DNA from: a virus
Taxonomy: Duplodnaviria; Caudoviricetes
Virus record (IMG/VR): IMGVR_UViG_3300032024_000088
Coordinates: 1 to 45,397 of that record
Length of the DNA stretch: 45,397 bases
Reading direction: 5' to 3' (one strand)
Position 1 is the stretch's first letter; every line of letters starts with the position of its first letter. The notes below the pieces were generated by a model, which made no database searches, had not been told where the DNA came from, and saw only the letters and a list, made by a program, of their open reading frames with translations. The translations under genes and the position numbers were made by a program. Positions 9,886 to 45,397 of the stretch are shown here, one piece after another.

Positions 9886-10036
9886 AGAACAATGGGCACT
9901 GGGGAACTTCTCTGCTGCCTTTAGTATGGAAATGGCAGTTAAGAACGCGGGCGCAACTGGGTATTGTAGTTGTTTGTCGGCATTGTTAGAAATGGATGCA
10001 CAGACATTAGAGGGGTATCTTCATGATTCAGAATAA
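9749..10036 (+). CDS. Hypothetical head-module protein overlapping the portal 3' end
   Basis: AAGGAG upstream; FQEWKRHPVT helical protein in the usual post-portal position. Confidence 0.6.
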   Translation: MNAQQMSNHSQPESLTPQEELFQEWKRHPVTQMVLEWAHQERESLKEQWALGNFSAAFSMEMAVKNAGATGYCSCLSALLEMDAQTLEGYLHDSE

Positions 10037-10340
10037 TAGCGGACTTCTTCCATTGGGCAGGGCAGTGTTGGTTCGCCCGTACACTCCGGAACGAGTTGGT
10101 TCTATAATTGAACTCCCGGCAGACATTGCTGTACGAGATCAAATGGTGGAGCAGCGAGCAGTGGTAGTTGCAATCGGCCCTACCGCATGGCATGATGAGC
10201 CAATGGCTCGTGCAGCAGTGGGAGATAAAGTGTTGTTGAGTCGATACTCGGGGTATATGGCAGAAGGTACTGCGGATAAGCAACAGTATCGGTTTGTCAA
10301 CGATCGAGATATCTTTGCAAAAATAGAAATGGAGAACTGA
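10023..10340 (+). CDS. GroES-like co-chaperonin
   Basis: PLGRAVLVRP, GSIIELP, VVAIGP, VGDKVL..YSG and DRDIFAKI match the Cpn10 pattern. Confidence 0.85.
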   Translation: MIQNNSGLLPLGRAVLVRPYTPERVGSIIELPADIAVRDQMVEQRAVVVAIGPTAWHDEPMARAAVGDKVLLSRYSGYMAEGTADKQQYRFVNDRDIFAKIEMEN

Positions 10341-19215: not shown

Positions 19216-19758
19216 ATGCGAAATCAAACTGGGCCACGTCTCCCTCATCGACAGTTGGGATTCCTTGGAGCAGCCCTCTCCATTGGTGGGGCAGTGCTGG
19301 GGGCAATCTCAGCAAAGAAAAAGGCCAAGCAGGAAAAGAAGTTAGCCCAACAGGCGGTTGAGGCGGCTGATCCTTTTGCTCCATATCGTAAGGACAATGC
19401 GCAGAAATTGCAGAACCTTATGAATGATCCATCTTCTGTGGAAAATCTTCCCGAGTACAAAACTCGTATTCGTGCTGCGGAAAGAACAATGGCTGCACAG
19501 GGATTCACTGGCAGTGGTAATGCACTGGTAGCTGCGGCAGAGGCTAGCGGTGAAGCATACCAGTCGGCGTTTAATAACTTGGCTCTCACATCTGGTGCGA
19601 ATGCTAACCCAGGCCAGGGCTTCCCTGCTGCATTGCAATCCACTGCAAATGCCAATCAGACAGATTTGAATGGGCAAGGTAATTTGTTTGGGACAATCGC
19701 TCGCGGTGGTCAACAGATTTGGGATTCATTTAACTCTCCTCCTCCGACCGGGCCATAA
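19216..19758 (+). CDS. Small ejection/pilot protein (P22 gp7-like)
   Basis: AGGAGG RBS; hydrophobic GFLGAALSIGGAVLG, then an Ala/Gln-rich region; PEYK..AAQG..GSGN motif. Confidence 0.7.
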   Translation: MRNQTGPRLPHRQLGFLGAALSIGGAVLGAISAKKKAKQEKKLAQQAVEAADPFAPYRKDNAQKLQNLMNDPSSVENLPEYKTRIRAAERTMAAQGFTGSGNALVAAAEASGEAYQSAFNNLALTSGANANPGQGFPAALQSTANANQTDLNGQGNLFGTIARGGQQIWDSFNSPPPTGP

Positions 19759-19761
19759 ATC

Positions 19762-20919
19762 ATGGGACAATGGTATGAAGTTGGTGCTAACACCCTTGAT
19801 GCAATCAACCGGGATAGAGAAAGCCGGTTGAATCAAGCGGCTACGCAGATGAACATGGATACTCTTGCACGTAATCAAAAGGCTGCAGAAGCTGAAGGCG
19901 TGGCCATCCAACGTGCGGGAGAGTTGTTTGGTCAACTGGCATCTGGGCAACACCCGAAGGGGTCGCCGCAAGTTGATGACGATGCTAGCGTGGCTGATCC
20001 CTTTATTCAAACGGGGTCTGCTTTGTTAGCAAGTGGTTATGCCAAGGCGGCTGAGCCGTTCTTCAAGCAAGGTAATGAACTTGCAAAGGAAGAGCGCCTT
20101 CGGATGACGGAGGAAAGGAATGCGGAGAAATTAGAAACAGAACGATCTGATCGGCAGATCTCCTTGACGGATAGGTTTCTTACTAACTCCAATGCTGCTT
20201 CATGGGAATCAGACAAGGCTGCTATGATTGCGGCAGGGGCAGATGGAACAATTAGTGAGAGTGAAGCACAGGCCCTTGCAGCACTCCCTTATGATCCAGA
20301 TGCAGTTGAGCAATTGCGGAAACAGGCGGTGACGGTAGCGGAACAGAATAAGGCCAAGCGATTGGAGTTGTCTGCGCAAGACCTTGCAACTGACAGACGC
20401 TTGAATCGTTCCTTGCGAATGCAGGAACTTGAACTTGCAAAACAAAAGGAACAGAATCGTAGGATAGATGAAGCAAACAAAGCTAAGGATGGGAAAAGTG
20501 CAGGGGCAGCTGACGCTAAAACAGTTGACCTTGCAGAAGCTACTATTCGTACTCGTCTCTTTGGTGGACGTATCCCGGATAAGAGCAAAGGCCTTCGTAT
20601 CCTTCGTGAGATGGCTCCTGTTATTGCATCTCGGGCAATTCAAGGATCTGCAAATCATCCTGGTATTACGATGGAAGTAGCTATTCAAAGAGAAATCACT
20701 AACGCTATCTCCAATGGTGAGCTGGATATGGAAGCAGTGGATGATGTTAAGGAAGCCAAGAAAAAGGCGGAGTTCACTCCTAAGGGTCGTACACGAGATG
20801 CTCCCTTGGTGTACAAGCGTGGAATGGAGATGCAGAAGGGATTGTACTACATGGTACCAACTGCGAATGGGGACAAGTTGGGTATCTGGACTGGCAGCTC
20901 TTTCAAAGAATTGGAGTAA
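19762..20919 (+). CDS. Middle ejection protein (P22 gp20-like position)
   Basis: Ala/Gln/Glu-rich helical protein between the pilot and the large ejection protein. Confidence 0.65.
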   Translation: MGQWYEVGANTLDAINRDRESRLNQAATQMNMDTLARNQKAAEAEGVAIQRAGELFGQLASGQHPKGSPQVDDDASVADPFIQTGSALLASGYAKAAEPFFKQGNELAKEERLRMTEERNAEKLETERSDRQISLTDRFLTNSNAASWESDKAAMIAAGADGTISESEAQALAALPYDPDAVEQLRKQAVTVAEQNKAKRLELSAQDLATDRRLNRSLRMQELELAKQKEQNRRIDEANKAKDGKSAGAADAKTVDLAEATIRTRLFGGRIPDKSKGLRILREMAPVIASRAIQGSANHPGITMEVAIQREITNAISNGELDMEAVDDVKEAKKKAEFTPKGRTRDAPLVYKRGMEMQKGLYYMVPTANGDKLGIWTGSSFKELE

Positions 20920-20922
20920 TGT

Positions 20923-23900
20923 ATGCCTCGTGAGTTTTCCTTGCAAGACTTAGATGCAATGGTAACAGGGGAATCGTCGGAAGGTCTGCCGGAGGAGCGT
21001 GGGCCAGGGAAACAATTCTCACTGGCAGACCTAGATGCAATGGTCGTTCCTGTGCAGCCTGTCCCCAAGGGTCCTTCCAAGATATCTCAGATTGTTGAGG
21101 GTGCGCAAAACCTTGGTAAGGGAGTTGAGAAACATCTCATTATTGATCCTATTGTGGGACTGGGGGAAGTTGCATCTGACACTTGGGATCACTTCCGTAA
21201 GCGCTGGGATGAACGGGGGATTGCTAACATTGATGCGTCGTTTAGTGCGGATCAGGTAGCTACACTGAAGGCACAGAATTTTAAGGGGGCAGATGACTTC
21301 CCGGATTCGGGCGTTAACTTCTTCGGGATGTCTGTTAACCCCAGCGAGCCGCAGGTGGTGGAAGAGGATACATTTGGGAAGTGGGTATCGCCTCTCACAT
21401 TATTGTTGCGTGAGAGTATGCCATCTCAAATGATCCAGTCTGCCTTCCGACAGCCAGAGCTTACTCGTGCTCGCTTTGATGCAGCCAACCGAGTGCTGCA
21501 ACAGTCTTATATTGTGAGTCATCCAGAGGAGTTTCCACAAGTAACTCGTGATGCAGCACAGGCTGCTATTGATACACGCAAGGCACGAGTTGATCCCACA
21601 CTGTGGGAACAAACAAAGGGCATGGCGGCAGGGATTAAGGAAGACCCTGGGGCAGTTGGGCTGGAGTTTGCGAAGGGTATCTTGGCTGACCCTTGGGCTG
21701 TGTCAGCGGCGTTGGAGGGAACTTCCATTAAGGTACTAACAAACCTTGCAAAGCTTGGTAAGGTTGCCAAAGTACCTGTTGCTATTAAGGCAGCCGATCG
21801 TGCTATTGGAGCGGGCATAGCTGGTGGTGGGGTGAACGCTGCTATTACAATAGCCCATCAAGAAAACACTCCCAACGGCAGGGATAGGGCAGAGATTCAA
21901 TTTGCCGCTACTCTTGGAGCAGCTTTAGGTGGCCCTCTTGGATTGGTGTTTGGCAAGGGGGCAAAAGCTCGTGAGACTATTAAGGGAACTACTCGCCCGA
22001 CTGGGGAGAAGGTCGCGGGAGACCTTGGAGAGGTTCTGGATAATGCTATCAAGGACCTTGCCAAGACCGAGGCTGTTATTGATGATCTTGTGGAACCGAT
22101 CATTGAAGGGAAGGGCGCCAGTCGTGTTGCTACTCGAGCGGAAGGTCTGGATGAAGTGTTTGATGTTGTGTCAATGGAACAGTTAGATGATTTCTTTGGT
22201 ATTGGAAAAAGAACCAATCCTAACACAGGGGAACTGGAGGTTGTTACAGATTTAACCAAGTGGCACAAGAAACGTGCGGCAGAACTGCGCGCGTTGTTCA
22301 AGGAAGAAAAGGACTATGCGGATTTCTTGGAGTTCAAGGCGCAAGAACGTGCAGACCTCACTCGGTCAAGGGAGAACCGTGAGGCTATTATGAATGCCAA
22401 ACGGCTTCAGGAGTTTGAGGCCAAGGAGGCAAGGAACATCTCTGAACGGGCGAAGTTTCAGGAAGAGTTTGACAACGCAGTGGAAGCAAGAGACTTGCAG
22501 GAACAACTCTCCATTATTGAACAGGCAAGGAAGCTTAACGAAGATCATATTAGGGAATCGTCCCTTAATGAAGCTGACGCCATGCAAGCTGCGTGGACAG
22601 AAGATGTTCCTGTCATTCGCAATGCTATGCAACAGGCTACGCGAAGGGCGAATAAGATTCGTCAGCGGGGAGTGGAAGGGTTTGCAGATGTAGACTTGTT
22701 GGTTAAACTTGGCCTTGGTGCAGGTGTTATCACGGCAGGGTTAGCTATGTTCCCGGAGGATGGGAAGAAAGGATCGTTGGCGGCGATCTTGCTGGGGGCA
22801 GTTACGAGAAGGGCACCGAGACATTTTGTCGCCAGGGATATTGCGCCCCGTTTGTTGGAAAAAGGCCTTGACAATCCCAATGTGTGGCCTATTCAAAAGA
22901 TGGTGCAGCGATACATCACTAGGCATCTTGGTAAAGACACTGATCCATTACATCAAGTGGAGCTTTTAACGCATCCGGGAAAATCTATTGCTTCCTTAAT
23001 GGATGATGTACTTACAGTACGTACAGTTAATGAAACTGATCTTAGACTTGCTGATGTACGTCTTGCAACTGCTTCAAGGGAAGTTGAACTAGGGGATATG
23101 GTAACTGATATAGTAACAACAAGGGAAAATACAGCATCTTACTTTGCTCTTACTGATTTCATGTCTCACGCCTCTGACTACGCTCTCACACTCCCCGAGG
23201 GTAAGTTAGCCCAGTATGATCTTCCACGTCTACTCCGGGAAACTGTTGAGTGGGATAAGAAGAACGCTGTCATTGCAGAGAAGGCTCGTGCGAAAGCTCG
23301 TACTGGGAAAGACAGTAAGTATAAAGAATACCCTGACGGCACCTACTGGACACGCCTCAATGAGGAGGGCCAGTTCGCTGCGGAGAGTGATATGATGGGG
23401 CATTCTGTTAGGGGGTATGAGAGGAATCCAAGTTTGGGAGGAGCATCTGATTATGGCTTCAATGGATGGAAGGGAATACAAGAAGAACATGCGAAGGTGT
23501 TTTCCCTTCGAGACGCTGATGGGATTAGTCATGTAACGGTGGAGTTATTCTCGCCGGAGAGAGCGTATGGCCTGTCACTCGACGATAAAAGAGCTATAAT
23601 AAACGTACAAGATCTTGTTTCAACGGACGAGTTAACACTGTCCGGAGCTAAAACAACGAAAGATTTTATTGTCGCCGCTCGTGAGGGTAAGTACGGCCCT
23701 ATCATTCGTGGAAAGATTGAACAGATTCTTGCAGACTCGAAAAAGAACAGAGGCGGTTATATCACTGCCCAGGTACGAGGGAAAGGTAACTCTGTCCCCA
23801 TTGAAAAGTACCGGGCTGCCATTGATGACTTGATTCGACAGGAAGCAGACAGTAAGGTAGAAGCAGGCGCCGGCTGGGAAGTTCAGGATCCTGTAAAACT

Positions 23901-26829
23901 TGCCCGTGGTGAACAATCTGGTTTCATTCACCCTGACATGTTGGACATGGTAGCGAAGGGGCTTGTTGTAACAGGCGGAGTAGCCTTGGGTGTTGGGCTA
24001 GCGCCAGACGACAGAAAATTGGCGGGTGGTATCCTCGGTGGATTGGCTGGGTTACTTGTCCCCAGTGGGGGCACTGTTGCAAGTCGTATGCGTCAGTCAG
24101 GGGCCATGTCATTGGATGGTTCCCGTCTTGTAGGGATGATCTTTGACGGCATGTCAGTGGCACAGGAAAAGGCCCTGCTGGATGGTGCCAGGGCGAAGGA
24201 TTCCACTAGCCTACGAAAGCTATTTGAAACGCACAGTGGAAGACTGCGCCGTAGTCTCGGGAGAGATATGCAAGATGTGCATGCCTCTGCTGGGGTAGAT
24301 ATAGATGACATTGTGCAAGAATCTTTCATCACTGCCTTTGAGAAGATTGACAACCTCAGAGACGGTGTGCAGTTCTACACTTGGCTATACGGGATTGGGA
24401 AGGTTAAACTTCGTACGGCAGCTAAGCGAGGGCGTCTACGTAGGACAGAGAGTATTGAACCTTCCATTGTTGCTAACGACATGGCGGAGTTAGGTGAGCC
24501 AGCGGCACGGGTGGAGGAACACTCACCGGGACACTTGGACACACCTGAGAACATTGCTATGGCTCAGGAGATGCAAGAGGCTCTCAATCGTTCTATTAAA
24601 GGAATGAGTGATGACTTGTTGAAGGTGTTTCTTCTGAATGAAGATGGTATGCCTCAGCCAGACATTGCAGCGGCTTTGGGGATTTCCCCTGTCAATGTGC
24701 GAGTGCGATTGTCCCGTGCTAAGGCACACATGGAAGCATCTGTGCAGAAGTATCTTGGCATTAAGGGTGGTGGGAGGAATAGTTTTGTCCGTGACGCTGG
24801 GACAGAAGGGCGAGTTGGGAATATTCCAAAGGTACCACGTAACCAACAGGGGGCGGTTGATCCTCAGTTGTTGCGCATTGCTATGTATGTTGGTGCAGGT
24901 GCGGCGTTGGGTACCTACTTCCGCCGCGAGGATGAACCCTTGTATGGGGCAGGCCTTGGAATGATTGCTGGCTTTGGGTTGGCTAGCCCAGGTGGGAAGA
25001 GATTGTTTAAGGGATTGGATAAAGCTGTTGGCATGGTGGACTATCGGATTAAAAAGATGAGCCCATTGCTATGGAAGAAAACCAAGGAACATGCTATTGG
25101 GGAACTGAAAGGAATTGATGATGGCCTGCATAAGGTTGATCCTTTCCTTGTACTGTTGAACCGTCTACCGCAGGCGCATCAGGCAGTGGTATGGCAGGCA
25201 CTGTCCACTAGTAATGGTACTGTCATCGGGAAGGTTATTGAGGCTGCGGGAGGGGAGGACTTGTTGAAGGCGCATAAGATATTCCGTGCGCACATGAAGG
25301 AACGTGGTGATCGTTTGGTTTCACTTGGTCTCATCAAGACTGCGGACGAATGGCACTTCCCGGCACGAGTAAAAGACCTGGAAGGGTTGCGTACTCATCT
25401 TGATGTTGCCAGCCGAGCATTTCTTGACCGTGTCTTGGATGATGCGGAGAGTAAGAAGATGAAGTCAGTGGGAGAGTCTCTTACGGAAATGGAGAAGAAT
25501 GCCATTATTCGGAATGTTCTTATTGGGTTCAAACATAAGGGAGATCGTCTGCCGGGGTTTGCAAGGAAGAAAGTCATTCCCGAGATCACGCCAGAGTTGC
25601 AACCCTTTTATTATTCCCCTACCGAGTCTGTGCATAGTTTCATTCGTGAGAGTGAGAAGGCTGTGCAGAAGGCTAAGTTCTTCGGTGTGCATAGGAAGGT
25701 TAAGAATGCCGATGGGCAGTTATTCACTGACACAGAGGAGTCAATTAGTAGTCTCACTCGAATGTTACGGGAGCAGGGGAAGTTAACAGACGATGAAGTG
25801 TTTGAACTTGCTGGGATGATCCGGGATAGGTTTGCAGGCGGTGAGCAGTCGATGAATACATTCTTACAAGGAACAAAGAACCTTGTGAGTGCTGGACTGT
25901 TGGGGAATATTTACTCCGCCGTTACCCAGATTGGTGATGGTATCATTCAGACAGGTCTGCAAGGGCCTCAGGCGTCAGTGTTGGCAGCGGCAAAGATGCT
26001 TTCTCGGAATACAGATATTAATGTCAAGAGTATTGGCATCACTGACTACCTCGCCGCCGACTTCATTGGAACAGACTGGACGGCCAAGGTAGCACGAGGG
26101 TCATTCAAGTGGGGTGGGTTCAGGGCAGTTGACTTGGGTATGAAAACCTTTGCTCTGCAGGCATCGTTTGAGAAACTGAAAATCCAAGTGCGTACGCAGA
26201 GTGGAATGAAGAAGCTCACGGAGAAGTACGGGGAAGTGTTTCCGAAGGAAGAATTTGATCAACTGGTGAAGGAGTTAAAGGTTGGAAAGAGGACTGACCT
26301 TATAGAGTTGGTGTCCTTCATGGAGCTGGGCAGAACACAAGTTATGAGTATGTGGGACACTCCGCAGTTGTATCAGAAGCATCCCACGGGGAGATTGTTC
26401 TACCACCTTGCATTGTTCAACCTTCGTGCGGCTAATGTGTTTCGGGAGGCAGCGTTTGCAAAAATGGCATCTGGTAACCCCATGGAGATTGCAAAGGGGT
26501 TGCGGAATCTACTAGGGTTGGGGCTAATGTATGGTATTGCTGGGGCTAGCACGGATAAGATCAAGGCGCTCTTACTGGGCAGGGACGTGGAGTTTGATCC
26601 AATGGACGTTCCCCTTAATACCATTGAGGCACTTGGCCTCAACATGTATGACTATGATAAGATGCAGCGGTCGAGAGACCCTATCAAGGAACTTATCTGG
26701 GCAAGGGGCATTCCGCCAACAGTGAAGGTTATTGGTGGTCTGGCAACAAGGCCAGCGGAGGATAGTGTCCGTCTCCTTCCAGTGGTTGGTCGACCATTAC
26801 ATGAGTTTGTAATAAAGGATGATGAATAA
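20923..26829 (+). CDS. Large ejection (internal virion) polyvalent protein containing PcfJ-like and ECF sigma-factor domains
   Basis: 1968 aa, third gene of the ejection trio; multiple Gly-rich TM-like segments; recognisable internal domains (see findings). Confidence 0.8.
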   Translation: MPREFSLQDLDAMVTGESSEGLPEERGPGKQFSLADLDAMVVPVQPVPKGPSKISQIVEGAQNLGKGVEKHLIIDPIVGLGEVASDTWDHFRKRWDERGIANIDASFSADQVATLKAQNFKGADDFPDSGVNFFGMSVNPSEPQVVEEDTFGKWVSPLTLLLRESMPSQMIQSAFRQPELTRARFDAANRVLQQSYIVSHPEEFPQVTRDAAQAAIDTRKARVDPTLWEQTKGMAAGIKEDPGAVGLEFAKGILADPWAVSAALEGTSIKVLTNLAKLGKVAKVPVAIKAADRAIGAGIAGGGVNAAITIAHQENTPNGRDRAEIQFAATLGAALGGPLGLVFGKGAKARETIKGTTRPTGEKVAGDLGEVLDNAIKDLAKTEAVIDDLVEPIIEGKGASRVATRAEGLDEVFDVVSMEQLDDFFGIGKRTNPNTGELEVVTDLTKWHKKRAAELRALFKEEKDYADFLEFKAQERADLTRSRENREAIMNAKRLQEFEAKEARNISERAKFQEEFDNAVEARDLQEQLSIIEQARKLNEDHIRESSLNEADAMQAAWTEDVPVIRNAMQQATRRANKIRQRGVEGFADVDLLVKLGLGAGVITAGLAMFPEDGKKGSLAAILLGAVTRRAPRHFVARDIAPRLLEKGLDNPNVWPIQKMVQRYITRHLGKDTDPLHQVELLTHPGKSIASLMDDVLTVRTVNETDLRLADVRLATASREVELGDMVTDIVTTRENTASYFALTDFMSHASDYALTLPEGKLAQYDLPRLLRETVEWDKKNAVIAEKARAKARTGKDSKYKEYPDGTYWTRLNEEGQFAAESDMMGHSVRGYERNPSLGGASDYGFNGWKGIQEEHAKVFSLRDADGISHVTVELFSPERAYGLSLDDKRAIINVQDLVSTDELTLSGAKTTKDFIVAAREGKYGPIIRGKIEQILADSKKNRGGYITAQVRGKGNSVPIEKYRAAIDDLIRQEADSKVEAGAGWEVQDPVKLARGEQSGFIHPDMLDMVAKGLVVTGGVALGVGLAPDDRKLAGGILGGLAGLLVPSGGTVASRMRQSGAMSLDGSRLVGMIFDGMSVAQEKALLDGARAKDSTSLRKLFETHSGRLRRSLGRDMQDVHASAGVDIDDIVQESFITAFEKIDNLRDGVQFYTWLYGIGKVKLRTAAKRGRLRRTESIEPSIVANDMAELGEPAARVEEHSPGHLDTPENIAMAQEMQEALNRSIKGMSDDLLKVFLLNEDGMPQPDIAAALGISPVNVRVRLSRAKAHMEASVQKYLGIKGGGRNSFVRDAGTEGRVGNIPKVPRNQQGAVDPQLLRIAMYVGAGAALGTYFRREDEPLYGAGLGMIAGFGLASPGGKRLFKGLDKAVGMVDYRIKKMSPLLWKKTKEHAIGELKGIDDGLHKVDPFLVLLNRLPQAHQAVVWQALSTSNGTVIGKVIEAAGGEDLLKAHKIFRAHMKERGDRLVSLGLIKTADEWHFPARVKDLEGLRTHLDVASRAFLDRVLDDAESKKMKSVGESLTEMEKNAIIRNVLIGFKHKGDRLPGFARKKVIPEITPELQPFYYSPTESVHSFIRESEKAVQKAKFFGVHRKVKNADGQLFTDTEESISSLTRMLREQGKLTDDEVFELAGMIRDRFAGGEQSMNTFLQGTKNLVSAGLLGNIYSAVTQIGDGIIQTGLQGPQASVLAAAKMLSRNTDINVKSIGITDYLAADFIGTDWTAKVARGSFKWGGFRAVDLGMKTFALQASFEKLKIQVRTQSGMKKLTEKYGEVFPKEEFDQLVKELKVGKRTDLIELVSFMELGRTQVMSMWDTPQLYQKHPTGRLFYHLALFNLRAANVFREAAFAKMASGNPMEIAKGLRNLLGLGLMYGIAGASTDKIKALLLGRDVEFDPMDVPLNTIEALGLNMYDYDKMQRSRDPIKELIWARGIPPTVKVIGGLATRPAEDSVRLLPVVGRPLHEFVIKDDE
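24151..24759 (+). other. RpoE/sigma-24-like ECF sigma domain within the 1968-aa protein (aa ~1077-1279)
   Basis: Sigma2 DIDDIVQESFITAF..FYTWLYGIG; linker TPENIAMAQEMQEAL; sigma4 HTH DIAAALGISPVNVRVRLSRAK. Confidence 0.88.
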
Positions 26830-27110
26830 TGAAAGGACCGAAGGACTACCTTGCCCTTGGTGATTGGAATGCAGTTTGTTACTGTTGTGGGCATAAGTAT
26901 AAGGCAAGTGAATTGAAGAGACATTGGCAGGGTTTCTATGTTTGTGACCACTGCTGGGAGCCACGTCATTCACAAGACTTTGTTCGTGGTGGAAAGGATG
27001 ATCAGACACCACCTTGGACACAGGTACGACCGGGAGATGTATTCGTCCCGGATGCACCAGATGTAGGGCCAGTCGTGCAGCCAACGGACTATCCAATTCA
27101 TGATGATTAG
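26829..27110 (+). CDS. Small Cys-rich (Zn-binding) phage protein
   Basis: CYCCG...VCDHCWEPRHSQDFVRG motif. Confidence 0.7.
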   Translation: MKGPKDYLALGDWNAVCYCCGHKYKASELKRHWQGFYVCDHCWEPRHSQDFVRGGKDDQTPPWTQVRPGDVFVPDAPDVGPVVQPTDYPIHDD

Positions 27111-27114
27111 GAAA

Positions 27115-27131
27115 TGTTTCATCGTGTAACA
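27115..27131. promoter_or_regulatory. parS-like palindrome TGTTTCA-TCG-TGTAACA
   Basis: Occupies most of the 22-bp gap where the two genome arms converge. Confidence 0.7.
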
Positions 27132-27132
27132 T

Positions 27133-28341
27133 TTAGTCATCCCCACCAATCCATTCGTAAAGCTTTTCCCCGGTCTCGGGGGAGAGCTTTATTTTTATCA
27201 CTCGCATACCTTCCAGCGTCTGCTCAATGCCGAGGAGGGCTTGTGCATCTACATCACGGTAGAACTTAGTGAGAATGACACGCTTGGTTGTAACTCCCAG
27301 ACGTTGGATGTAGGACTTGATCATCTCAGTGGAGTCAGCATTCCTTGCCCGGCCCAGGCCACCGAAGGTCTTAGCCATGTTACCTTCCACGTTCTCCAAC
27401 AATGTCAAGGCACGTGCAAAGTCCAGGGCAGATAATTCCATTGAGTCACCACGGCTGGCACTGGAGATCATCATCAACTTGCGTAGATGAGTAGCCCGTC
27501 GCTCACAGTAGCCAGCAAATCTTGTGTCTGCAATAACAGGGTTACCGGCGCTGAGGGCTTCATCCTGTTTAATATACCAGGCAATGTAAAGGTCTCGCGC
27601 TTCGGCATCCATAGTCATCTCACCGGCCATCTGACCGATGCGTTCCAGGTCTCTGGTTAGGGCCAACCCTAGTTGGACTTCATGTTCTGATATATTGTGT
27701 TCAGCGATAGTGCGGCGTTTCTTCTCTTCCACCACGAAGATAATACGGCTAGTGAATCCACCACCAACAGCTTCGTGGGGTATCATAGATTGTAACCAGT
27801 CCGGCGCAGTGCCGCCCAGCAGATTCAAGCACAGGCCACTGAGGGAATCCTTACCTCGGGAGACTGTCTCGTACTCCCATTCATCCTTGGAGTCATACCA
27901 GTCAGTGAGATTGGCGAGATACGCAATGTCGCCCTGTCCAAGGAACACCGAGAGCTCTTCACTGAATGCCGTAATAGCACAGTGGAACTTAGTCTTGTTA
28001 TCCGTGGGGTCCTTGAAGTTTGTAATAGCCCGTTTCATGGCAAGGATAAGAGCCTGTCGTCCGCTGGAGGATTCCGGGGCTACACTGATTCCAGGTACCT
28101 GCCGGAGTAGGTCCTTCGCAATGCCGATAGCACCACCCTTACGAGTTCGCCCAGATGCACCAACCAATACTACATACATGTTAGGATAGATTACCTGCCC
28201 AAGACCCCATTTTAGATACACGCGTCGTTGAAGCGCCCCGGCTACAACTGAGATGGAACACCACTCATGGTATGAAAGAGGGGATTCAGTGTTCTCAGTG
28301 TACTCGGTGTAGGCGTCTAACCAATCACTGAGTTCCCTCAT
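27133..28341 (-). CDS. DUF3987-type P-loop ATPase/helicase
   Basis: NMYVVLVGASGRTRKG Walker A-like, FSEELSVF, LTDWYD, GGFTSRIIFV; next to PolA. Confidence 0.7.
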   Translation of the reverse strand: MRELSDWLDAYTEYTENTESPLSYHEWCSISVVAGALQRRVYLKWGLGQVIYPNMYVVLVGASGRTRKGGAIGIAKDLLRQVPGISVAPESSSGRQALILAMKRAITNFKDPTDNKTKFHCAITAFSEELSVFLGQGDIAYLANLTDWYDSKDEWEYETVSRGKDSLSGLCLNLLGGTAPDWLQSMIPHEAVGGGFTSRIIFVVEEKKRRTIAEHNISEHEVQLGLALTRDLERIGQMAGEMTMDAEARDLYIAWYIKQDEALSAGNPVIADTRFAGYCERRATHLRKLMMISSASRGDSMELSALDFARALTLLENVEGNMAKTFGGLGRARNADSTEMIKSYIQRLGVTTKRVILTKFYRDVDAQALLGIEQTLEGMRVIKIKLSPETGEKLYEWIGGDD

Positions 28342-29848
28342 TTACACTCTCCAGAAGGCGTTGAAAATCTTGATACGTGGTTACATCTTGCAGTCCATCT
28401 GGATTACTTTTGTTTGCCTCCCCCCAGTTCCAGCCCATTTTGAAGTCACTGGAAATTCTGAATGTGCGGCCAGAGTAAGATAGTTCCGGGGAAGTGTAAG
28501 TGGTGATTGTTTGCAGGAGGTTGTTGAATTTCTCCTCTGTGTCGATGGAAGTTATTGGAACTTGCATGAGGATGCTGTCATGGACTTGCGCAAGAATATC
28601 AAGATTGTAGCCATCCTTCCCGGTGAGGGCGTCATCAGCGTAGATATATACCATCCCTTGATTCAAGGAATCTACGACGGTAGACTGTGGCATGGAAGCG
28701 TATGCTTCCTTCCAAAGGGAATCACCCCAAGCATCCATGAAGCGAATACGCCTACCCATGCAGTTTACAAGGGTACGATCTTTCTGTAACTGTCGCTTTA
28801 CATTATCATACCAGAGACGAATACCGGGGTAGATTTTGTGATACAGCGCAACGATTCGTTTACCCTCCGACACCAGCATCTCATTGATGAGGGAGAAGTT
28901 TGTGAACCCTTCATCGTAGTTCAGGCCGTGGTTGGATTTCTTTCCACACTGCCGTGCCGACATGTTCCTGGGGAGGCCAGTGAATCGACGGAGTATGTCA
29001 TCAGCATCCCGGATTTCTTTAATCTTATCCGGATCAGATGCGTGGCCGACTAGTTCCTTTTCATAAACAATAACTTCTTCCGGCACATTGAACATAAGGT
29101 GGGCTGTGTGAACGTGTACGTCTTTGCCCTGTTCAATAGCATCAATCATGTTAGCATCGCCACTGATGTAGGCAACCACTACCCACTCCGCCTGTCGCTT
29201 GTCCACGTCAAGGAATACGTAACCAGGATCAGGGACGAGGAATTGTTTGAACTCTTGCGGCAGGTTCTGCATGTTAGCGCCAGTACCGAAAACAGTCTTA
29301 CTGGAGGACAGTCGGCCGAACTTGGTGCCGCGAGGATTGAAGGAAGCACGAAGACGATTGTCTTCGTCGAACTCAATTGTTAAGTAGGTGCCGTAGAGTT
29401 TCTCAAGGCTTCGTACTTCCTGCACCAGCTTAGCTTCATACATGCCAGGACGTGCGGCGGTGCCTCGTGCAATTCTCTGCAAAGCCATGTCGTCCACAGT
29501 AATACCACCCCCCTTACTCTTATACGGAGTGATATTGTTTTCAACGTAAAAGTATTTCTGACAGTCCTTGGGACTGTTGACATTTAAGGAACGGCCACAA
29601 AGGGCATCCAGTTGGGATTGTTTCTCGGACTTTTCCTTGAGGATGTATTCCCTTGTTTTCCCCAACCTTTCTTGGTCAACTCGAATCCCTCGTGTTTGCA
29701 TGAACATAAGAACAGGGAACAGCCGAGTGGTCATCTGATAGGTCTGGGTATATTTTTCTTTTTCCAACATGTCCCAGATTGCCTGCTGTATCTCAAGGGT
29801 ACAGGCAGCGTCAAGGGCATTGTATTCAAGAAACTTCGCACTATGCAC
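28325..29848 (-). CDS. polA: Family A DNA polymerase, ExoIII + polymerase part
   Basis: YNALDA (ExoIII), FGRLSSS, NMQN, motif A DKRQAE, motif B RQCGKKSNHGLNY, motif C QVHDS; own AAGGAG RBS and GTG start. Confidence 0.92.
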   Translation of the reverse strand: MHSAKFLEYNALDAACTLEIQQAIWDMLEKEKYTQTYQMTTRLFPVLMFMQTRGIRVDQERLGKTREYILKEKSEKQSQLDALCGRSLNVNSPKDCQKYFYVENNITPYKSKGGGITVDDMALQRIARGTAARPGMYEAKLVQEVRSLEKLYGTYLTIEFDEDNRLRASFNPRGTKFGRLSSSKTVFGTGANMQNLPQEFKQFLVPDPGYVFLDVDKRQAEWVVVAYISGDANMIDAIEQGKDVHVHTAHLMFNVPEEVIVYEKELVGHASDPDKIKEIRDADDILRRFTGLPRNMSARQCGKKSNHGLNYDEGFTNFSLINEMLVSEGKRIVALYHKIYPGIRLWYDNVKRQLQKDRTLVNCMGRRIRFMDAWGDSLWKEAYASMPQSTVVDSLNQGMVYIYADDALTGKDGYNLDILAQVHDSILMQVPITSIDTEEKFNNLLQTITTYTSPELSYSGRTFRISSDFKMGWNWGEANKSNPDGLQDVTTYQDFQRLLESVNEGTQ

Positions 29849-29849
29849 G

Positions 29850-30047
29850 TTAGTCTCCTTGGCAAGTTGAACAGGCGGGCACGGATGCTAACATATCTGT
29901 GAAGGATGCAAAGGGGCCGGTGTAGGCCTCGTCTTTGATACCCTTTATTCGGTAAGGCTCTACAGCAGGCAACAAACAGTAGTACCATCCATCACTTCTC
30001 CTGGTGGCACATATCCCTTTGAGAGGGACAATAATAGAGTTGGTCAT
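29850..30047 (-). CDS. 65-aa hypothetical protein inserted between the two polA halves
   Basis: AAGGAG RBS; TAATG coupling; C-terminal CSTC. Confidence 0.5.
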   Translation of the reverse strand: MTNSIIVPLKGICATRRSDGWYYCLLPAVEPYRIKGIKDEAYTGPFASFTDMLASVPACSTCQGD

Positions 30048-31084
30048 TATGAATCTCCTTTGATGTTGTCAAACTTAATCATGTCCTTCCAGAATGGTTG
30101 GGTACCTAGGTAGAGACTGCCAAGAAAACCAAGCCCCTTCCGCAATTCTGGATACATAACGGAGTGGGCAATCATGGTGTCATAGATGGGGCCTCTCACT
30201 ACAATGCCGCACCTTGTTAGAAGGAACTGAATGTCGAAGATGAGATTCTGTCCTACCTTGATGATCTTTTCATTTCCCAAGATTCGTTGGACACCTCGGT
30301 AGATTATTGCTTCCTCCTCTACCGACCATCGTTCATCAATGGGGATAGAGCAAGACAAATTGGGAGAACTACTGAACGAAATGGATGCCAGTTCGTAATG
30401 AGTTACTTCAATGTCAAAGGAAACAAGGGGTTCCCCCGTGAAGTAATCCAACCAGTCCATTACCTCACTGAGAGAGTTGAATGTGTAGGCAAGCTTTCGT
30501 TCAGGCAGGACAAGGTTATGGGTGCTGGATTCGATCTTGGCTTTTTGAAGGTCTGCGGAGATCAAGTATCGGCCAAGGTAATTACCCCTTATGGTATCAC
30601 CCGGAGGCAAAGTGGGGATTACCTTACGACAACTTGTTATGTTATCCACTGGAGGGAACACATACCCACGGTAGGTAGCTACACTAGACACACCGCAGAT
30701 TACCTGAGATGCCATAGCACCACAAGCTACTATGATGTTGCAATCCAGGGAGTTTATTTCCTCATAGAAGGCGTCAAGGTGGGGTTGTGCGGCGGGTGTG
30801 AACTTGTGTTTCTTGTCATTGTAGTACACCCCTGGACTGTCCGCGACAATCTTAAACACATTGGTCAGGTAGATGTCACTCTTGATGAAGCCAGCACTAT
30901 GAAAACATTGTTCTAGGACAGACCCAGCGGGGCCATTGAAAGGAGCCATTGTGCGCAAGTCAAAACGAGATGGGAATCCCCCTACGATTGCCACCTTTGC
31001 CTGTGGAGAGCCAGTGGATTTGATTAACTTACTTGGTGCGGTGGGAAGAAACATTATGTTACTCCTCGCTAGCTTGTTCTTCAA
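30047..31084 (-). CDS. UDG-family-4-like domain fused to ExoI/ExoII of the PolA 3'-5' exonuclease
   Basis: G...AKVAIVG, PFNGPAG, IYLTNVFK (UDG fold); SFDIEV, GQNLIFD, YDTMIAH (DnaQ-like exonuclease). Confidence 0.85.
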   Translation of the reverse strand: MKNKLARSNIMFLPTAPSKLIKSTGSPQAKVAIVGGFPSRFDLRTMAPFNGPAGSVLEQCFHSAGFIKSDIYLTNVFKIVADSPGVYYNDKKHKFTPAAQPHLDAFYEEINSLDCNIIVACGAMASQVICGVSSVATYRGYVFPPVDNITSCRKVIPTLPPGDTIRGNYLGRYLISADLQKAKIESSTHNLVLPERKLAYTFNSLSEVMDWLDYFTGEPLVSFDIEVTHYELASISFSSSPNLSCSIPIDERWSVEEEAIIYRGVQRILGNEKIIKVGQNLIFDIQFLLTRCGIVVRGPIYDTMIAHSVMYPELRKGLGFLGSLYLGTQPFWKDMIKFDNIKGDS

Positions 31085-32390
31085 TAACCTTTTGGAAATC
31101 CTTTTCTACCTCAAGCAAGAATCTATTCTTGTACTCGTCGTTGGAGTCAAAGCCAAGTGCCTTGAAACCAAGGGAGTATGCGCTGCGCAAGGTTGCTCCA
31201 CTGCCAAGAAAGGGGACAAGGATTGTCTCATTGCCAAACAAAAAGATGTCAAGGATACGATTGAGAAGCCATGCTGGGCGCTGAGTGGGGTGATACTTAT
31301 CTGCTGGCGGTACGTTCGGGCCGCTAAAGACATTCAATGCAGCAGGCTTGTGAAGGATAGCTTCGCCCTTTCGACAGACAAAAAAGGATTCATACCCACG
31401 GGCAAGGTTAACATTTGGCTGGAGGCACTGACCACCGGGCTTAGTCCACACGGCAGGAATGTCATCCACCTTCCACCCGGCATCCTCAAGGGATTTCTTT
31501 GTTTCCGTGTACCAGGTGTGACCATGCCAGAAAACCATCCAAGCATCTTTGTATGTTACACGGAAGAGCTCCTTGGTCAACTTGTCCAGGAAGGGAATGT
31601 AGTCCTCGCGGGGGATTTCGTTGTAAGAAGAGACCTGACTCCCCTTGTCATCCTTCTGATCAGCCTTCACATTGCGGAGGTCGATGCCGTAAGGAGGATC
31701 ACACTCAACGAAGTGAATCTTCCCACCTGTTCGTAGTCCTGCAAGACCCTCGAATATGTCACTGATGATGTAGTTAGCCTCCGCCATGTGAAGGGCATTT
31801 GCAAGGCCGTTGTTGGCGCTACTACTGGACTTCTCCACTCGAGTGACTTGATGTTTCCGTAGAGCGTCGGTGATTTTATCTTCCTCATATTTCTTCAACA
31901 TACGAAAGGCATCCTGCATTCCTTCACAATCTTCCAGGCCAGGAATTAGTTTCATTCCCTTTGCCAACTGAATGTACCGAGACATGGTAGCGATGGATTC
32001 TTCCAAAAGGAAGGATGCCTTGCGAATGTTCCAGGTGGAGTCCTTCTCCCGGTATAGTTGATCGACTTCATATATCAGTTTGGATTTCTCCTGCCAAGTG
32101 AAGTCCTTCCTGTGAGCGTTTTCAATTAGCTCAACTTCCCGAAGGTCAATCATGCCACAGTTTTCACGAATCAGGGCAGGGATTTCCTTCAACCCCAGCT
32201 GAGTTGCAGCATGGAACCTTCGGCCACCAGCTTGCAGGTTGTAGTCACTGTCCAAAGTAATGGGCTGGAGGATTCCTTTCTCTTCAATGGAGTGGATAAG
32301 TTCATCAATATTACCCATATCCACACGGAAACGAGTACCAACTTTTATGTCCTTCAGGGGGACGAATTTTAACTTTGCTGAGCGCGCCAT
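31059..32390 (-). CDS. ParB-N/HTH fused to N6/N4 DNA methyltransferase (beta-class motif order)
   Basis: SIEEKGILQPI, AGGRRFHA, ELIENAHR (ParB); HTH WNIRKASFLLEESIATMSRYI; DPPY, HPTQRP, PFLGSG (MTase). Confidence 0.88.
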   Translation of the reverse strand: MARSAKLKFVPLKDIKVGTRFRVDMGNIDELIHSIEEKGILQPITLDSDYNLQAGGRRFHAATQLGLKEIPALIRENCGMIDLREVELIENAHRKDFTWQEKSKLIYEVDQLYREKDSTWNIRKASFLLEESIATMSRYIQLAKGMKLIPGLEDCEGMQDAFRMLKKYEEDKITDALRKHQVTRVEKSSSSANNGLANALHMAEANYIISDIFEGLAGLRTGGKIHFVECDPPYGIDLRNVKADQKDDKGSQVSSYNEIPREDYIPFLDKLTKELFRVTYKDAWMVFWHGHTWYTETKKSLEDAGWKVDDIPAVWTKPGGQCLQPNVNLARGYESFFVCRKGEAILHKPAALNVFSGPNVPPADKYHPTQRPAWLLNRILDIFLFGNETILVPFLGSGATLRSAYSLGFKALGFDSNDEYKNRFLLEVEKDFQKVIEEQASEE

Positions 32391-41409: not shown

Positions 41410-41538
41410 GTTAATTTCCTTGATTGTTTGGTTAGATGAACCCAACATGATTGCATGGGTTCACCCTGTTAATGTCCCAACCGGGGCGAATGTTACCGGT
41501 CTAATGGTGGTCTAACCAACCGGGGTTCCCCATCGAAT

Positions 41539-42454: not shown

Positions 42455-42672
42455 CACCCGTTGCCATGTTGCCACATTGCCATGTTTCCATGTTTCAATG
42501 TTTGTATCCCCCATCCATCCATCTAATTTTTTTTTTTCAGTTTTTTTAGGAACGGGCATGGCCCATTGAAACATTGAAACATTGAAACATAACAACATGA
42601 TAACAAAGCAACATAACAACATGTGAACATGTGAACACAATCGACCAAACCCAAACCGTTTCACGTGAAACA
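42455..42672. repeat. Iteron-like short repeats flanking a poly-T tract (candidate origin/centromere)
   Basis: CATGTT/CATGTTTC repeats, T11+T7 tract, (ATTGAAAC)x3, (CATGTGAA)x2, ending in CGTTTCACGTGAAACA. Confidence 0.65.
42657..42672. promoter_or_regulatory. parS: Canonical bacterial parS site (15/16 match)
   Basis: CGTTTCACGTGAAACA vs consensus TGTTTCACGTGAAACA. Confidence 0.7.
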
Positions 42673-43387: not shown

Positions 43388-43733
43388 GTTCGTTTGTCCG
43401 TTGTACGTACCCGATTGGTACATACATTAATGTCCCAATCGGGTACGTTGTTACAATCTAATTTCACCAATCACTAACCAATTCAGTTAGTGTTCATGCT
43501 GTGCTGCCCAGCTTTGCGCGCCAAACATAGTGCACCGCAGCACTAACAAAATCCCATGCCATGCCGTATAGGATCCACACCAAAGAGGCTGGGGGGAAAA
43601 TTGACGCGCGTGTGTCCGGGGGGAAAAGGCACTTTCTCACCCGCGAATCAACTGAAACATGTTAGTGCCGTTCGTTCTGTTAGGGGCGGTTGTACTGACC
43701 ACGGTTGGGGATGGTCATTTGGCCTGCCCGGCA

Positions 43734-44826: not shown

Positions 44827-45264
44827 ATGAGCAAAAGTGACGTTTGGGAAAATGACCTGCTGAAGTTGATCTTTACCAATGTGGATATTGCTACTATTGG
44901 CGATGCTGGAGGACTGCGAGGTAGTGTTGCTGCTGGGAATCTTTGGATATCCCTCCATACGGCTGACCCTGGAGAGGCTGGCACGGCAGTTACCAACGAA
45001 ACCGCCTACACCGGGTATGCTCGGCAGGCCCTCGTTCGAGGGGCGGGTTTTACTGTCACTGCCAACTCTGTTAGTCCCTCCGCAGATGTGGACTTCCCGG
45101 CTGCTACCGCATCCCCTGGCGCAGCTATTACTCACTTCGGTGTGGTAGCAACAGCCAGTGGTGCAGGTAAACTCTTGTACAGCGGCACCCTCACCCCTAA
45201 CATCACAATGGCTATTGGGGTGATTCCAAGGGTGAAGGCTACCACCACAATCACTGAAGATTAA
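44827..45264 (+). CDS. Phage tail-fibre-associated structural protein (paralog/allele of 1201-1641)
   Basis: AGGAG RBS; LHTADPGEAG..ETAYTGYAR; ends TITED. Confidence 0.75.
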   Translation: MSKSDVWENDLLKLIFTNVDIATIGDAGGLRGSVAAGNLWISLHTADPGEAGTAVTNETAYTGYARQALVRGAGFTVTANSVSPSADVDFPAATASPGAAITHFGVVATASGAGKLLYSGTLTPNITMAIGVIPRVKATTTITED

Positions 45265-45300
45265 GAACGTGATAAGCTCCTACATACAGGAACGTAGCTG

Positions 45301-45397
45301 ATGGCTATTGCTGCGCGACTTGTAGGAAAGGGTGCTGCCGCAGCAGCGTCTACAACCACTGCTGCCGGCACGTCGTCTGTCAGCGGAAGCACATTCC
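45301..45397 (+). CDS. 5' fragment of a tail-fibre gene (variant of 1837-4023)
   Basis: MAIAARLVGKGAAAAASTTTAAG; the last 55 nt are identical to 1879-1933. Confidence 0.75.
   Translation, partial: MAIAARLVGKGAAAAASTTTAAGTSSVSGSTF

Follow-up and report, generated by a model that had tools for sequence, protein, structure and literature searches.

The stretch of DNA analysed here (the window) is the 45,397-nucleotide (nt) virus record IMGVR_UViG_3300032024_000088 of IMG/VR, a podophage-like genome rated 100% complete. Its plus strand carries the late genes (terminase, portal, capsid, tail hub, lysis and a three-gene block at 19216-26829) and its minus strand the early and replication genes. 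The last gene of the block, the third of a predicted ejection trio, encodes a modular protein of 1968 amino acids (aa) that contains a complete extracytoplasmic function (ECF) sigma factor (Table 1). This arrangement had been proposed by an earlier annotation made from the letters alone, referred to below as the original prediction; the peptides that it quoted are in frame within the 1968-aa open reading frame (ORF), and the span that it delimited, aa 1056-1313, covers the sigma domain plus both flanking QxG joints.

The sigma domain of the 1968-aa protein

Sigma regions 2 and 4 were found in order and above curated cut-offs at aa 1077-1278, as the original prediction had claimed. Sigma70_r2 of Pfam matched aa 1121-1167 with 26.6 bits (cut-off 24), Sigma70_r4_2 matched aa 1220-1270 with 36.7 bits (cut-off 25.7) and TIGR02937 scored 57.8 bits (cut-off 42.9), so that the three profiles that it had named all pass; the Pfam family Sigma70_ECF matched aa 1085-1273. 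The equivalog profile of RpoE (ECF02), TIGR02939, reached 51.9 bits, far under its cut-off of 236.15, and the domain is therefore not RpoE itself. By sequence, the closest solved structure was E. coli sigma-E (1or7, E 5.5e-14), and the nearest free ECF sigmas are 26-36% identical. The domain is the sole sigma match in the window genome.

A fold model from the single sequence was poor, with a predicted local distance difference test score (pLDDT) of 42, and was discarded; the AlphaFold2 model based on a 43-row alignment was used, with a mean pLDDT of 79.6 and values of about 87-95 across most helical blocks of both domains. The 29-residue linker between the two sigma domains is not resolved in this model. 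Foldseek placed sigma-E and AlgU at the top ranks, region 2 superimposing on 4lup with a root-mean-square deviation of 2.3 Å over 98 columns. Region 3 is absent, and the architecture is that of an ECF sigma factor: two helical domains with a short flexible linker between them, roughly 200 aa in all. Numbered as in RpoE through the sequence match to 1or7, the DNA-reading residues W73, I77, R171, R173 and R176 are kept, while K56, N80, N84, S172 and F175 are replaced by T, V, T, V and S, respectively; the change of all five suggests that DNA specificity would differ from that of RpoE, in line with the original prediction. Compared with the closest relative (in L001), region 2 is 84% identical with a ratio of non-synonymous to synonymous change (pN/pS) of 0.17, the whole gene having a pN/pS of 0.33; such values are rough, as synonymous sites are saturated.

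When region 2 was co-folded with residues 210-345 of E. coli beta', the docking score was 0.78 and the best of three controls scored 0.01. Runs agreed on at least 93% of contacts and partner pLDDT was at least 84, the top contacts being D1129, Q1132, E1133, F1135 and I1136 against beta' 275-298. The mark used for this score is reached by 116 of 157 solved pairs versus 2 of 215 mismatched pairs, and since sigma-beta' complexes have already been solved, the pass may come from the memory of the model. In region 2.2, D1129 and Q1132 match the family majority, shared by 85% and 79%, respectively, of the 49 embedded sigmas described below. Conserved residues and predicted docking are both consistent with binding of the region 2.2 surface to the beta' clamp helices, the contact that the original prediction had singled out for modelling.

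The fusion is neither a chimera nor a frameshift, as two sets of contigs agree on it and a relative shares it. Positions 20000-28000 are unbroken in contigs of two runs with zero differences, although these contigs may be this DNA's own source, and the closest relative, 62-64% identical over its full length, has the same sigma fusion. Relatives fall in assembled-genome bins labelled Shewanella and Cellvibrionaceae, which are possibly wrong. Scans of viral contigs with the sigma region alone or the C-terminal region alone gave no relatives, and a tblastn search of the 1968-aa protein against 50,697 deposited phage records returned nothing but a sigma-like stretch in one record of 1.9 kb without annotation; in the nearest isolate, the capsid protein is 48% identical.

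No anti-sigma was found next to the sigma-carrying gene. The zinc-ribbon gene that follows it was rejected as a candidate, as it occurs in sigma-less genomes too. This 93-aa gene (26829-27110, plus strand) encodes two CxxC pairs and, in the 16 genomes examined, usually lies directly 3' of the ejection gene, with or without a sigma.

Table 1. Features of the window relevant to the embedded sigma factor, with their positions and the basis of each assignment
Feature	Position	Strand	Basis
ECF sigma domain, aa 1077-1278 (regions 1.2/2, linker, region 4)	24151..24756	+	profiles, sequence match, predicted fold
Third and largest gene of the predicted ejection trio, 1968-aa modular protein	20923..26829	+	ORF, family search, synteny
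QxG joint upstream of sigma, aa 1058-1060, RQSG-AMSLDG	24094..24102	+	motif; candidate cut site, putative cleavage
QxG joint downstream of sigma, aa 1308-1310, NQQG-AVDP, then Gly-rich hydrophobic hairpin	24844..24852	+	motif; candidate cut site, putative cleavage
Further QxG joint, aa 998-1000, before Gly-rich hydrophobic hairpin	23914..23922	+	motif
Conserved family-defining C-terminal domain	25003..26826	+	C-terminal search
Second cargo module, about aa 650-990	22870..23892	+	matches stretches labelled PcfJ-like by Pfam in homologues; no Pfam match in the window protein
First trio gene, P22 gp7-like, N-terminal leader ending QLG (9 of 11 close homologues are without it)	19216..19758	+	Atlas features, predicted structure
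Second trio gene, 385 aa, no family match, gp20-like by position only	19762..20919	+	ORF, synteny
Candidate sigma-dependent promoter 1, GTAAC-18 nt-ATTAA, first in early region, AT-rich upstream, overlaps inverted repeat	43427..43454	-	
Candidate sigma-dependent promoter 2, blocks and spacing as promoter 1, upstream not AT-rich	41469..41496	-	

The protein family, the predicted ejection trio and the QxG joints

The C-terminal 619 aa of the protein match 2290 clusters at 50% identity (E<=0.001), and the nearest named Atlas clusters are labelled LPD39 (55% of members) or LPD38 (25%). The best 150 of these 2290 clusters and the closest relative were assembled into a set of 151 homologues, in which a sigma was counted if a match to the profile built from the window's domain spanned at least 60% of the two-domain region. 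A full sigma was present in 49 of the 151; a search for homologues with and without the domain had been suggested by the original prediction. Among 28 homologues scanned with Pfam, a sigma region was found in 20 and an N-terminal wall-lytic SLT or M15 domain in 15; PcfJ-like, LPD23 and methylase modules were present in some. In all 8 whole genomes that carry the sigma, the window included, it sits in the ejection gene. In five others (G012, G013, G014, G016 and G022), the large gene that occupies this slot encodes no sigma, and the slot proteins of G013, G014 and G016 show no detectable blastp homology to that of the window. In a quick tree, a branch separated all 56 embedded sigmas from 25 free ECF sigmas (SH-like approximate likelihood ratio test 99); the free rows include no true RpoE, and a single origin of the embedded sigmas may be compatible with this tree. 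A sigma in an ejection-type protein is a family trait, in many members together with a wall-lytic domain, and, beyond what the original prediction described, the family is large and the sigma lies between repeated QxG joints.

The three-gene block follows the tail hub and its first gene is gp7/gp14-like, which is the arrangement of P22/T7-type ejection proteins. For that first gene the Atlas feature match was 0.95 with 177 shared features, and 25% of the matched cluster carries the label P22_gp7. In P22, according to the accessible part of bioRxiv 2026.09.03.749273, gp7 is processed and the third ejected protein adds the last part of the channel that leads into the cytoplasm. Judged by its position and its relatives, the 1968-aa protein probably belongs to the internal virion (ejection) proteins.

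Q-x-G-x-[AVI]-D motifs divide the modules of the protein, and a Gly-rich hydrophobic hairpin comes after most of these motifs; a degenerate fourth joint near aa 581-586 adds to the three of Table 1. The pattern Q.G.[AVIS][DSH] occurs 177 times in the 151 proteins versus a mean of 28.8 and a maximum of 39 in shuffled sequences, and at the last joint (148 rows) Q is present in 66% and G in 93%. Around the 49 sigmas, a joint was found downstream in 46, upstream in 26 and on both sides in 25, the pieces bounded in this way being 229-286 aa long. The leader of the gp7-like protein ends with QLG in the window and QGG in G009, and 9 of 11 close homologues begin at the next position, as expected if QxG is a cut site. 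From these patterns, the QxG joints are likely to be cut sites. An HExxH zincin motif was absent from the window protein and present in 11 of the 151 homologues. Cleavage by prepilin peptidase was considered and rejected: its substrate motif, given in the accessible part of PMC3244431 as [GAS]-x4-[DE] followed by an uncharged run, was matched in its core by one of four joints and in its uncharged run by none of the four.

Candidate early promoters and the residues that would read them

Repeated two-block motifs with a free spacer were ranked in the non-coding DNA of the early strand, in the window and in syntenic relatives whose primase is 59-67% identical to that of the window. The method was set on the first six genomes and rerun on eleven with narrower region limits and a wider palindrome filter. 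These eleven comprise seven genomes with a sigma and four without; G003 (with sigma) and G022 (without), in both of which the early region is missing its beginning, were not counted, and neither were the more distant or partial genomes G004, G005, G011, G015, G017, G018, G019 and G021. The top motif pair was promoter-like in 7/7 sigma-carrying genomes and in 0/4 sigma-less ones. It reads GTAAC-N18-ATTAA in the window (2 copies), TGAAC-N17-ATC[CA]AA in G001 and G009 (3 and 2 copies), C[AT]AAC-N18-GTCTAA in G010 (3 copies), TTTCC-N18-GATAT in G002 (3 copies), GTCAC-N17-GACATA in C47 and TGTCC-N18-GACATA in C50 (2 copies each), mostly with an AT-rich tract upstream. A stretch RGRGRPRK, which we take to be AT-hook-like, lies after region 4 and just before the joint in homologues P0023-P0026, P0034, P0040, P0055, P0058, P0071 and P0072; such a stretch could recognise the AT-rich tracts that precede the motifs.

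The number of shuffles, out of 40, reaching the top score was 0 for the window, 1 for G001, 0 for G002, 22 for C47, 0 for C50, 1 for G009 and 0 for G010, versus 4, 15, 31 and 13 for the sigma-less G012, G013, G014 and G016. Shuffles were thus beaten in 6/7 sigma-carrying versus 0/4 sigma-less genomes (Fisher p ~0.015, for a threshold chosen afterwards and genomes that are not independent); with dinucleotide shuffles of the window, 7 of 300 reached its score. In a scan of six genomes, the strict motifs of the window, G001, G002, C47 and C50 were found only on the early strand of their own genome, and in these five genomes the first copy is close to where the early region begins. Over viral contigs, the window motif gave 24 single matches, approximately the number expected by chance, and none of them was in the early region of this phage group as judged by tblastn. 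A scan for sigma-70 promoters did not separate sigma-carrying from sigma-less genomes.

Base preferences of residues at RpoE positions 171, 172 and 84 have been measured by Todor et al. (bioRxiv 2020.06.23.168245; PMC7776599, dataset S3, used from their accessible parts). Each sigma was scored against each motif in its best register and all 5040 pairings were permuted; the true pairing was matched or beaten by 16 of the 5040 permutations, with or without a fourth rule whose weight we set ourselves. The signal comes from the -10 side (-13/-12/-11; permutation fraction 0.007): D84 is associated with CG at -13/-12 (G002, C47 and C50), Q84 with CA (G009) and N84 with -12G (G010). In the window, R171 fits -31C and V172 fits -34T, and the fit of T84 is a third choice only. 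For G003, with a predicted preference for CGA, an AT-rich tract precedes one of the three CGAYAT sites located within its first 6.3 kb, a weak hint. The differences among phages fit motifs that follow the DNA-reading residues of each sigma, for the window phage only partly.

Other elements were noted in and around the non-coding DNA. Low-GC non-coding DNA of the early region at 42480-42620 contains short tandem repeats and an A-run, and a long A-run is found at a comparable location in G006:C50. A palindrome GTTTCA-N3-TGAAAC (0-1 mismatch) occurs nine times, mostly in intergenic positions (7728, 13639, 19187, 27116, 33216, 36184, 38681, 41540 and 44779); at up to 2 mismatches there are 11 matches in the window versus 2.8 expected, and G002, G003, C47 and C50 each have 7-9 copies of a 17-bp version specific to them, which shares its outer arms with that of the window. 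The palindrome looks operator-like and, we presume, resembles parS; a ParB-methylase fusion gene is located at 31059-32390. A GroES-like co-chaperonin gene (10023-10340, plus strand) between the portal and head genes is kept in relatives and in Alcaligenes phage vB_Af_QDWS535, and the family A DNA polymerase (28325-31054, minus strand) is split over two ORFs with a small ORF between them, a split shared by most relatives. At the ends, 45294-45397 repeats 1830-1933 at 93%, and 44827-45264 and 1201-1641 are two copies of a tail/head gene; another assembly, of 43,494 bp, begins near 1879. A co-assembled strain may have contributed bases 1-1829 as an alternative segment of tail genes.

Proposed delivery of the sigma factor, alternatives and known systems

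We consider it probable that the late gene product is packaged, ejected and probably cut at its joints, and that the freed sigma recruits host core polymerase to private early promoters. The 1968-aa protein would enter the cell with the phage DNA, cuts at the QxG joints would free a piece of about 250 aa (aa 1061-1310), region 2 would dock on the beta' clamp helices of the host core polymerase, and the resulting holoenzyme would start transcription at the two phage-specific early motifs. Because the gene is late and the motifs are early, the sigma produced during one infection would do its work in the following one. If left uncut, the sigma could function while tethered where the ejection channel opens into the cytoplasm. 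Delivery of an active sigma is supported, indirectly, by the position in the trio, the wall-lytic domains of homologues, the kept core-binding residues and the private motifs. With somewhat less assurance, we favour the wider view that, in a widespread uncultured podophage clade, infection begins with an ECF sigma that the particle delivers and proteolysis frees, each lineage having its own diverged sigma and private early promoters.

Several observations weigh against delivery of an active sigma. Only 25 of the 49 sigmas have a joint on both sides, and Pfam finds no wall-lytic domain in the window protein itself. Candidate promoter 1 overlaps a strong inverted repeat at 43405-43448 (DNA hairpin -21.1 kcal/mol, z -7.0), which could be a regulatory element, an origin or a packaging site, and candidate promoter 2 has no AT-rich tract upstream. 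The C47 motif is the only one that fails to beat shuffles. In the residue-base test, the -35 part alone is not significant (fraction 0.16), and the window residues score the G002 and C47 motifs (3.6) over their own (2.3), because T84 prefers CG. The C47, C50 and G002 sigmas form one clade, and collapsing it puts the true pairing at rank 1-2 of 24 or 2-3 of 120; the pairing pattern had also been noticed by eye before the test was coded. G001 and G009 share a sigma-E-like motif while their sigmas are 30% identical and not sisters, and a host ECF would explain that motif as well. The recognition helix is 57% identical to that of the closest relative with a pN/pS of 0.37, being less conserved than region 2, and R171 and R173 are lost in that relative.

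The motif shared by G001 and G009 and the better conservation of region 2 would also suit an injected decoy or competitor, in which the domain would bind core polymerase or an anti-sigma of the RseA/MucA type and the early motifs would be read by a host ECF; the motifs of G001, G009 and G010 also resemble the -35 box of RpoE, GGAACTT (PMC8103513). However, the seven genomes have several different motifs that track the residues of their own sigma at -13/-12/-11, sigma-less relatives have no such motif, and a decoy would have no need of both DNA-reading domains, yet to be counted among the 49 a profile match had to span at least 60% of the two-domain region. We regard a decoy as unlikely. Slightly less probable still is an active sigma that is freed late from the polyprotein and works in the producing cell. 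The joints could be cut before packaging, as processing of P22 gp7 illustrates, and known phage sigmas serve middle and late genes, but the motifs are confined to the early region and early strand, which a late-made factor has little cause to read, and the sigma is kept inside the ejection gene wherever a whole genome carries it. The least probable alternative is a captured, decaying passenger, or DNA binding that would just help to pull the genome in without starting transcription: the window copy departs from conserved family positions (N80, kept in 87% of the family, is V; G66 is D; E is D at 1241 and 1247) and is distant from free ECFs, but purifying selection, the kept core-binding surface and matched two-block motifs at fixed spacing speak against this.

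If particle delivery of an active sigma is true, about 200 residues in the particle would give early transcription that is independent of the host sigma pool, and immediate-early transcription would have a third route in addition to virion RNA polymerases and strong host-sigma promoters. The clade would also be a natural library of orthogonal sigma-promoter pairs; the seven sigma-motif pairs have differing predicted specificity and can be tested with core polymerase and a reporter, no phage culture being required. The QxG joints provide defined sites for probing the processing of polyvalent virion proteins. We found no report of a virion-carried sigma in the open-access literature, subscription papers being largely outside the search.

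The domain resembles ECF (group 4) sigmas of the RpoE/AlgU type (1or7, 6jbq and 6in7) in having only regions 2 and 4, the same fold and the core-binding residues, and its candidate targets are likewise two-block motifs 17-18 nt apart, from -31 to -12. It differs from them in being embedded in a 1968-aa phage protein, in its changed DNA-reading residues and in the lack of a detected adjacent anti-sigma. Like the free-standing phage sigmas, phiEco32 gp36 and those of jumbo phages, it is phage-encoded and is predicted to redirect the host core polymerase. These are separate genes expressed during infection: in the accessible part of PMC12276001, gp36 serves middle and late genes and early genes use sigma-70, and jumbo-phage sigmas are described as separate factors in that of PMC7824862. 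For the window sigma, in contrast, the gene is a late structural one and the candidate targets lie in the early region. Synthesis of the cited phage sigmas follows entry, and a phage that supplies its own early transcription does so with a complete polymerase. N4-type polymerases for early transcription, listed among polyvalent virion proteins in the accessible part of PMC5512222, share with the window protein a large product, here presumably ejected, that carries the means for the earliest transcription; the window would bring a 200-aa specificity factor that borrows the host core polymerase instead of a polymerase. A search for T7-type polymerases gave no match in five genomes nor in controls and is hence uninformative, and PHROG scans of the 58 window ORFs on the same question named no polymerase.

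As described in the same part of Iyer et al. 2017 (PMC5512222), phage polyvalent proteins are large multi-cargo proteins encoded beside virion genes. The window protein may be of this kind, with a sigma and a PcfJ-like module, LPD23 in relatives, and LPD38/39 only as nearest Atlas clusters. It differs in having no HExxH zincin, common though not universal there, and in its QxG joints. The word sigma occurs 0 times in the main text of that paper, and its supplements may list such a domain. The trio resembles P22 gp7/gp20/gp16 in its three genes of rising size after the tail hub, the first being gp7-like with a likely removable leader, and P22 gp16 reaches the cytoplasm (bioRxiv 2026.09.03.749273, accessible part); unlike in P22, the large protein has no sequence match to solved ejection proteins or to the ejection genes of deposited phages. 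In conclusion, the ECF sigma and the polyvalent ejection protein are each of a known kind, and their combination would be a new strategy if it passes bench tests.

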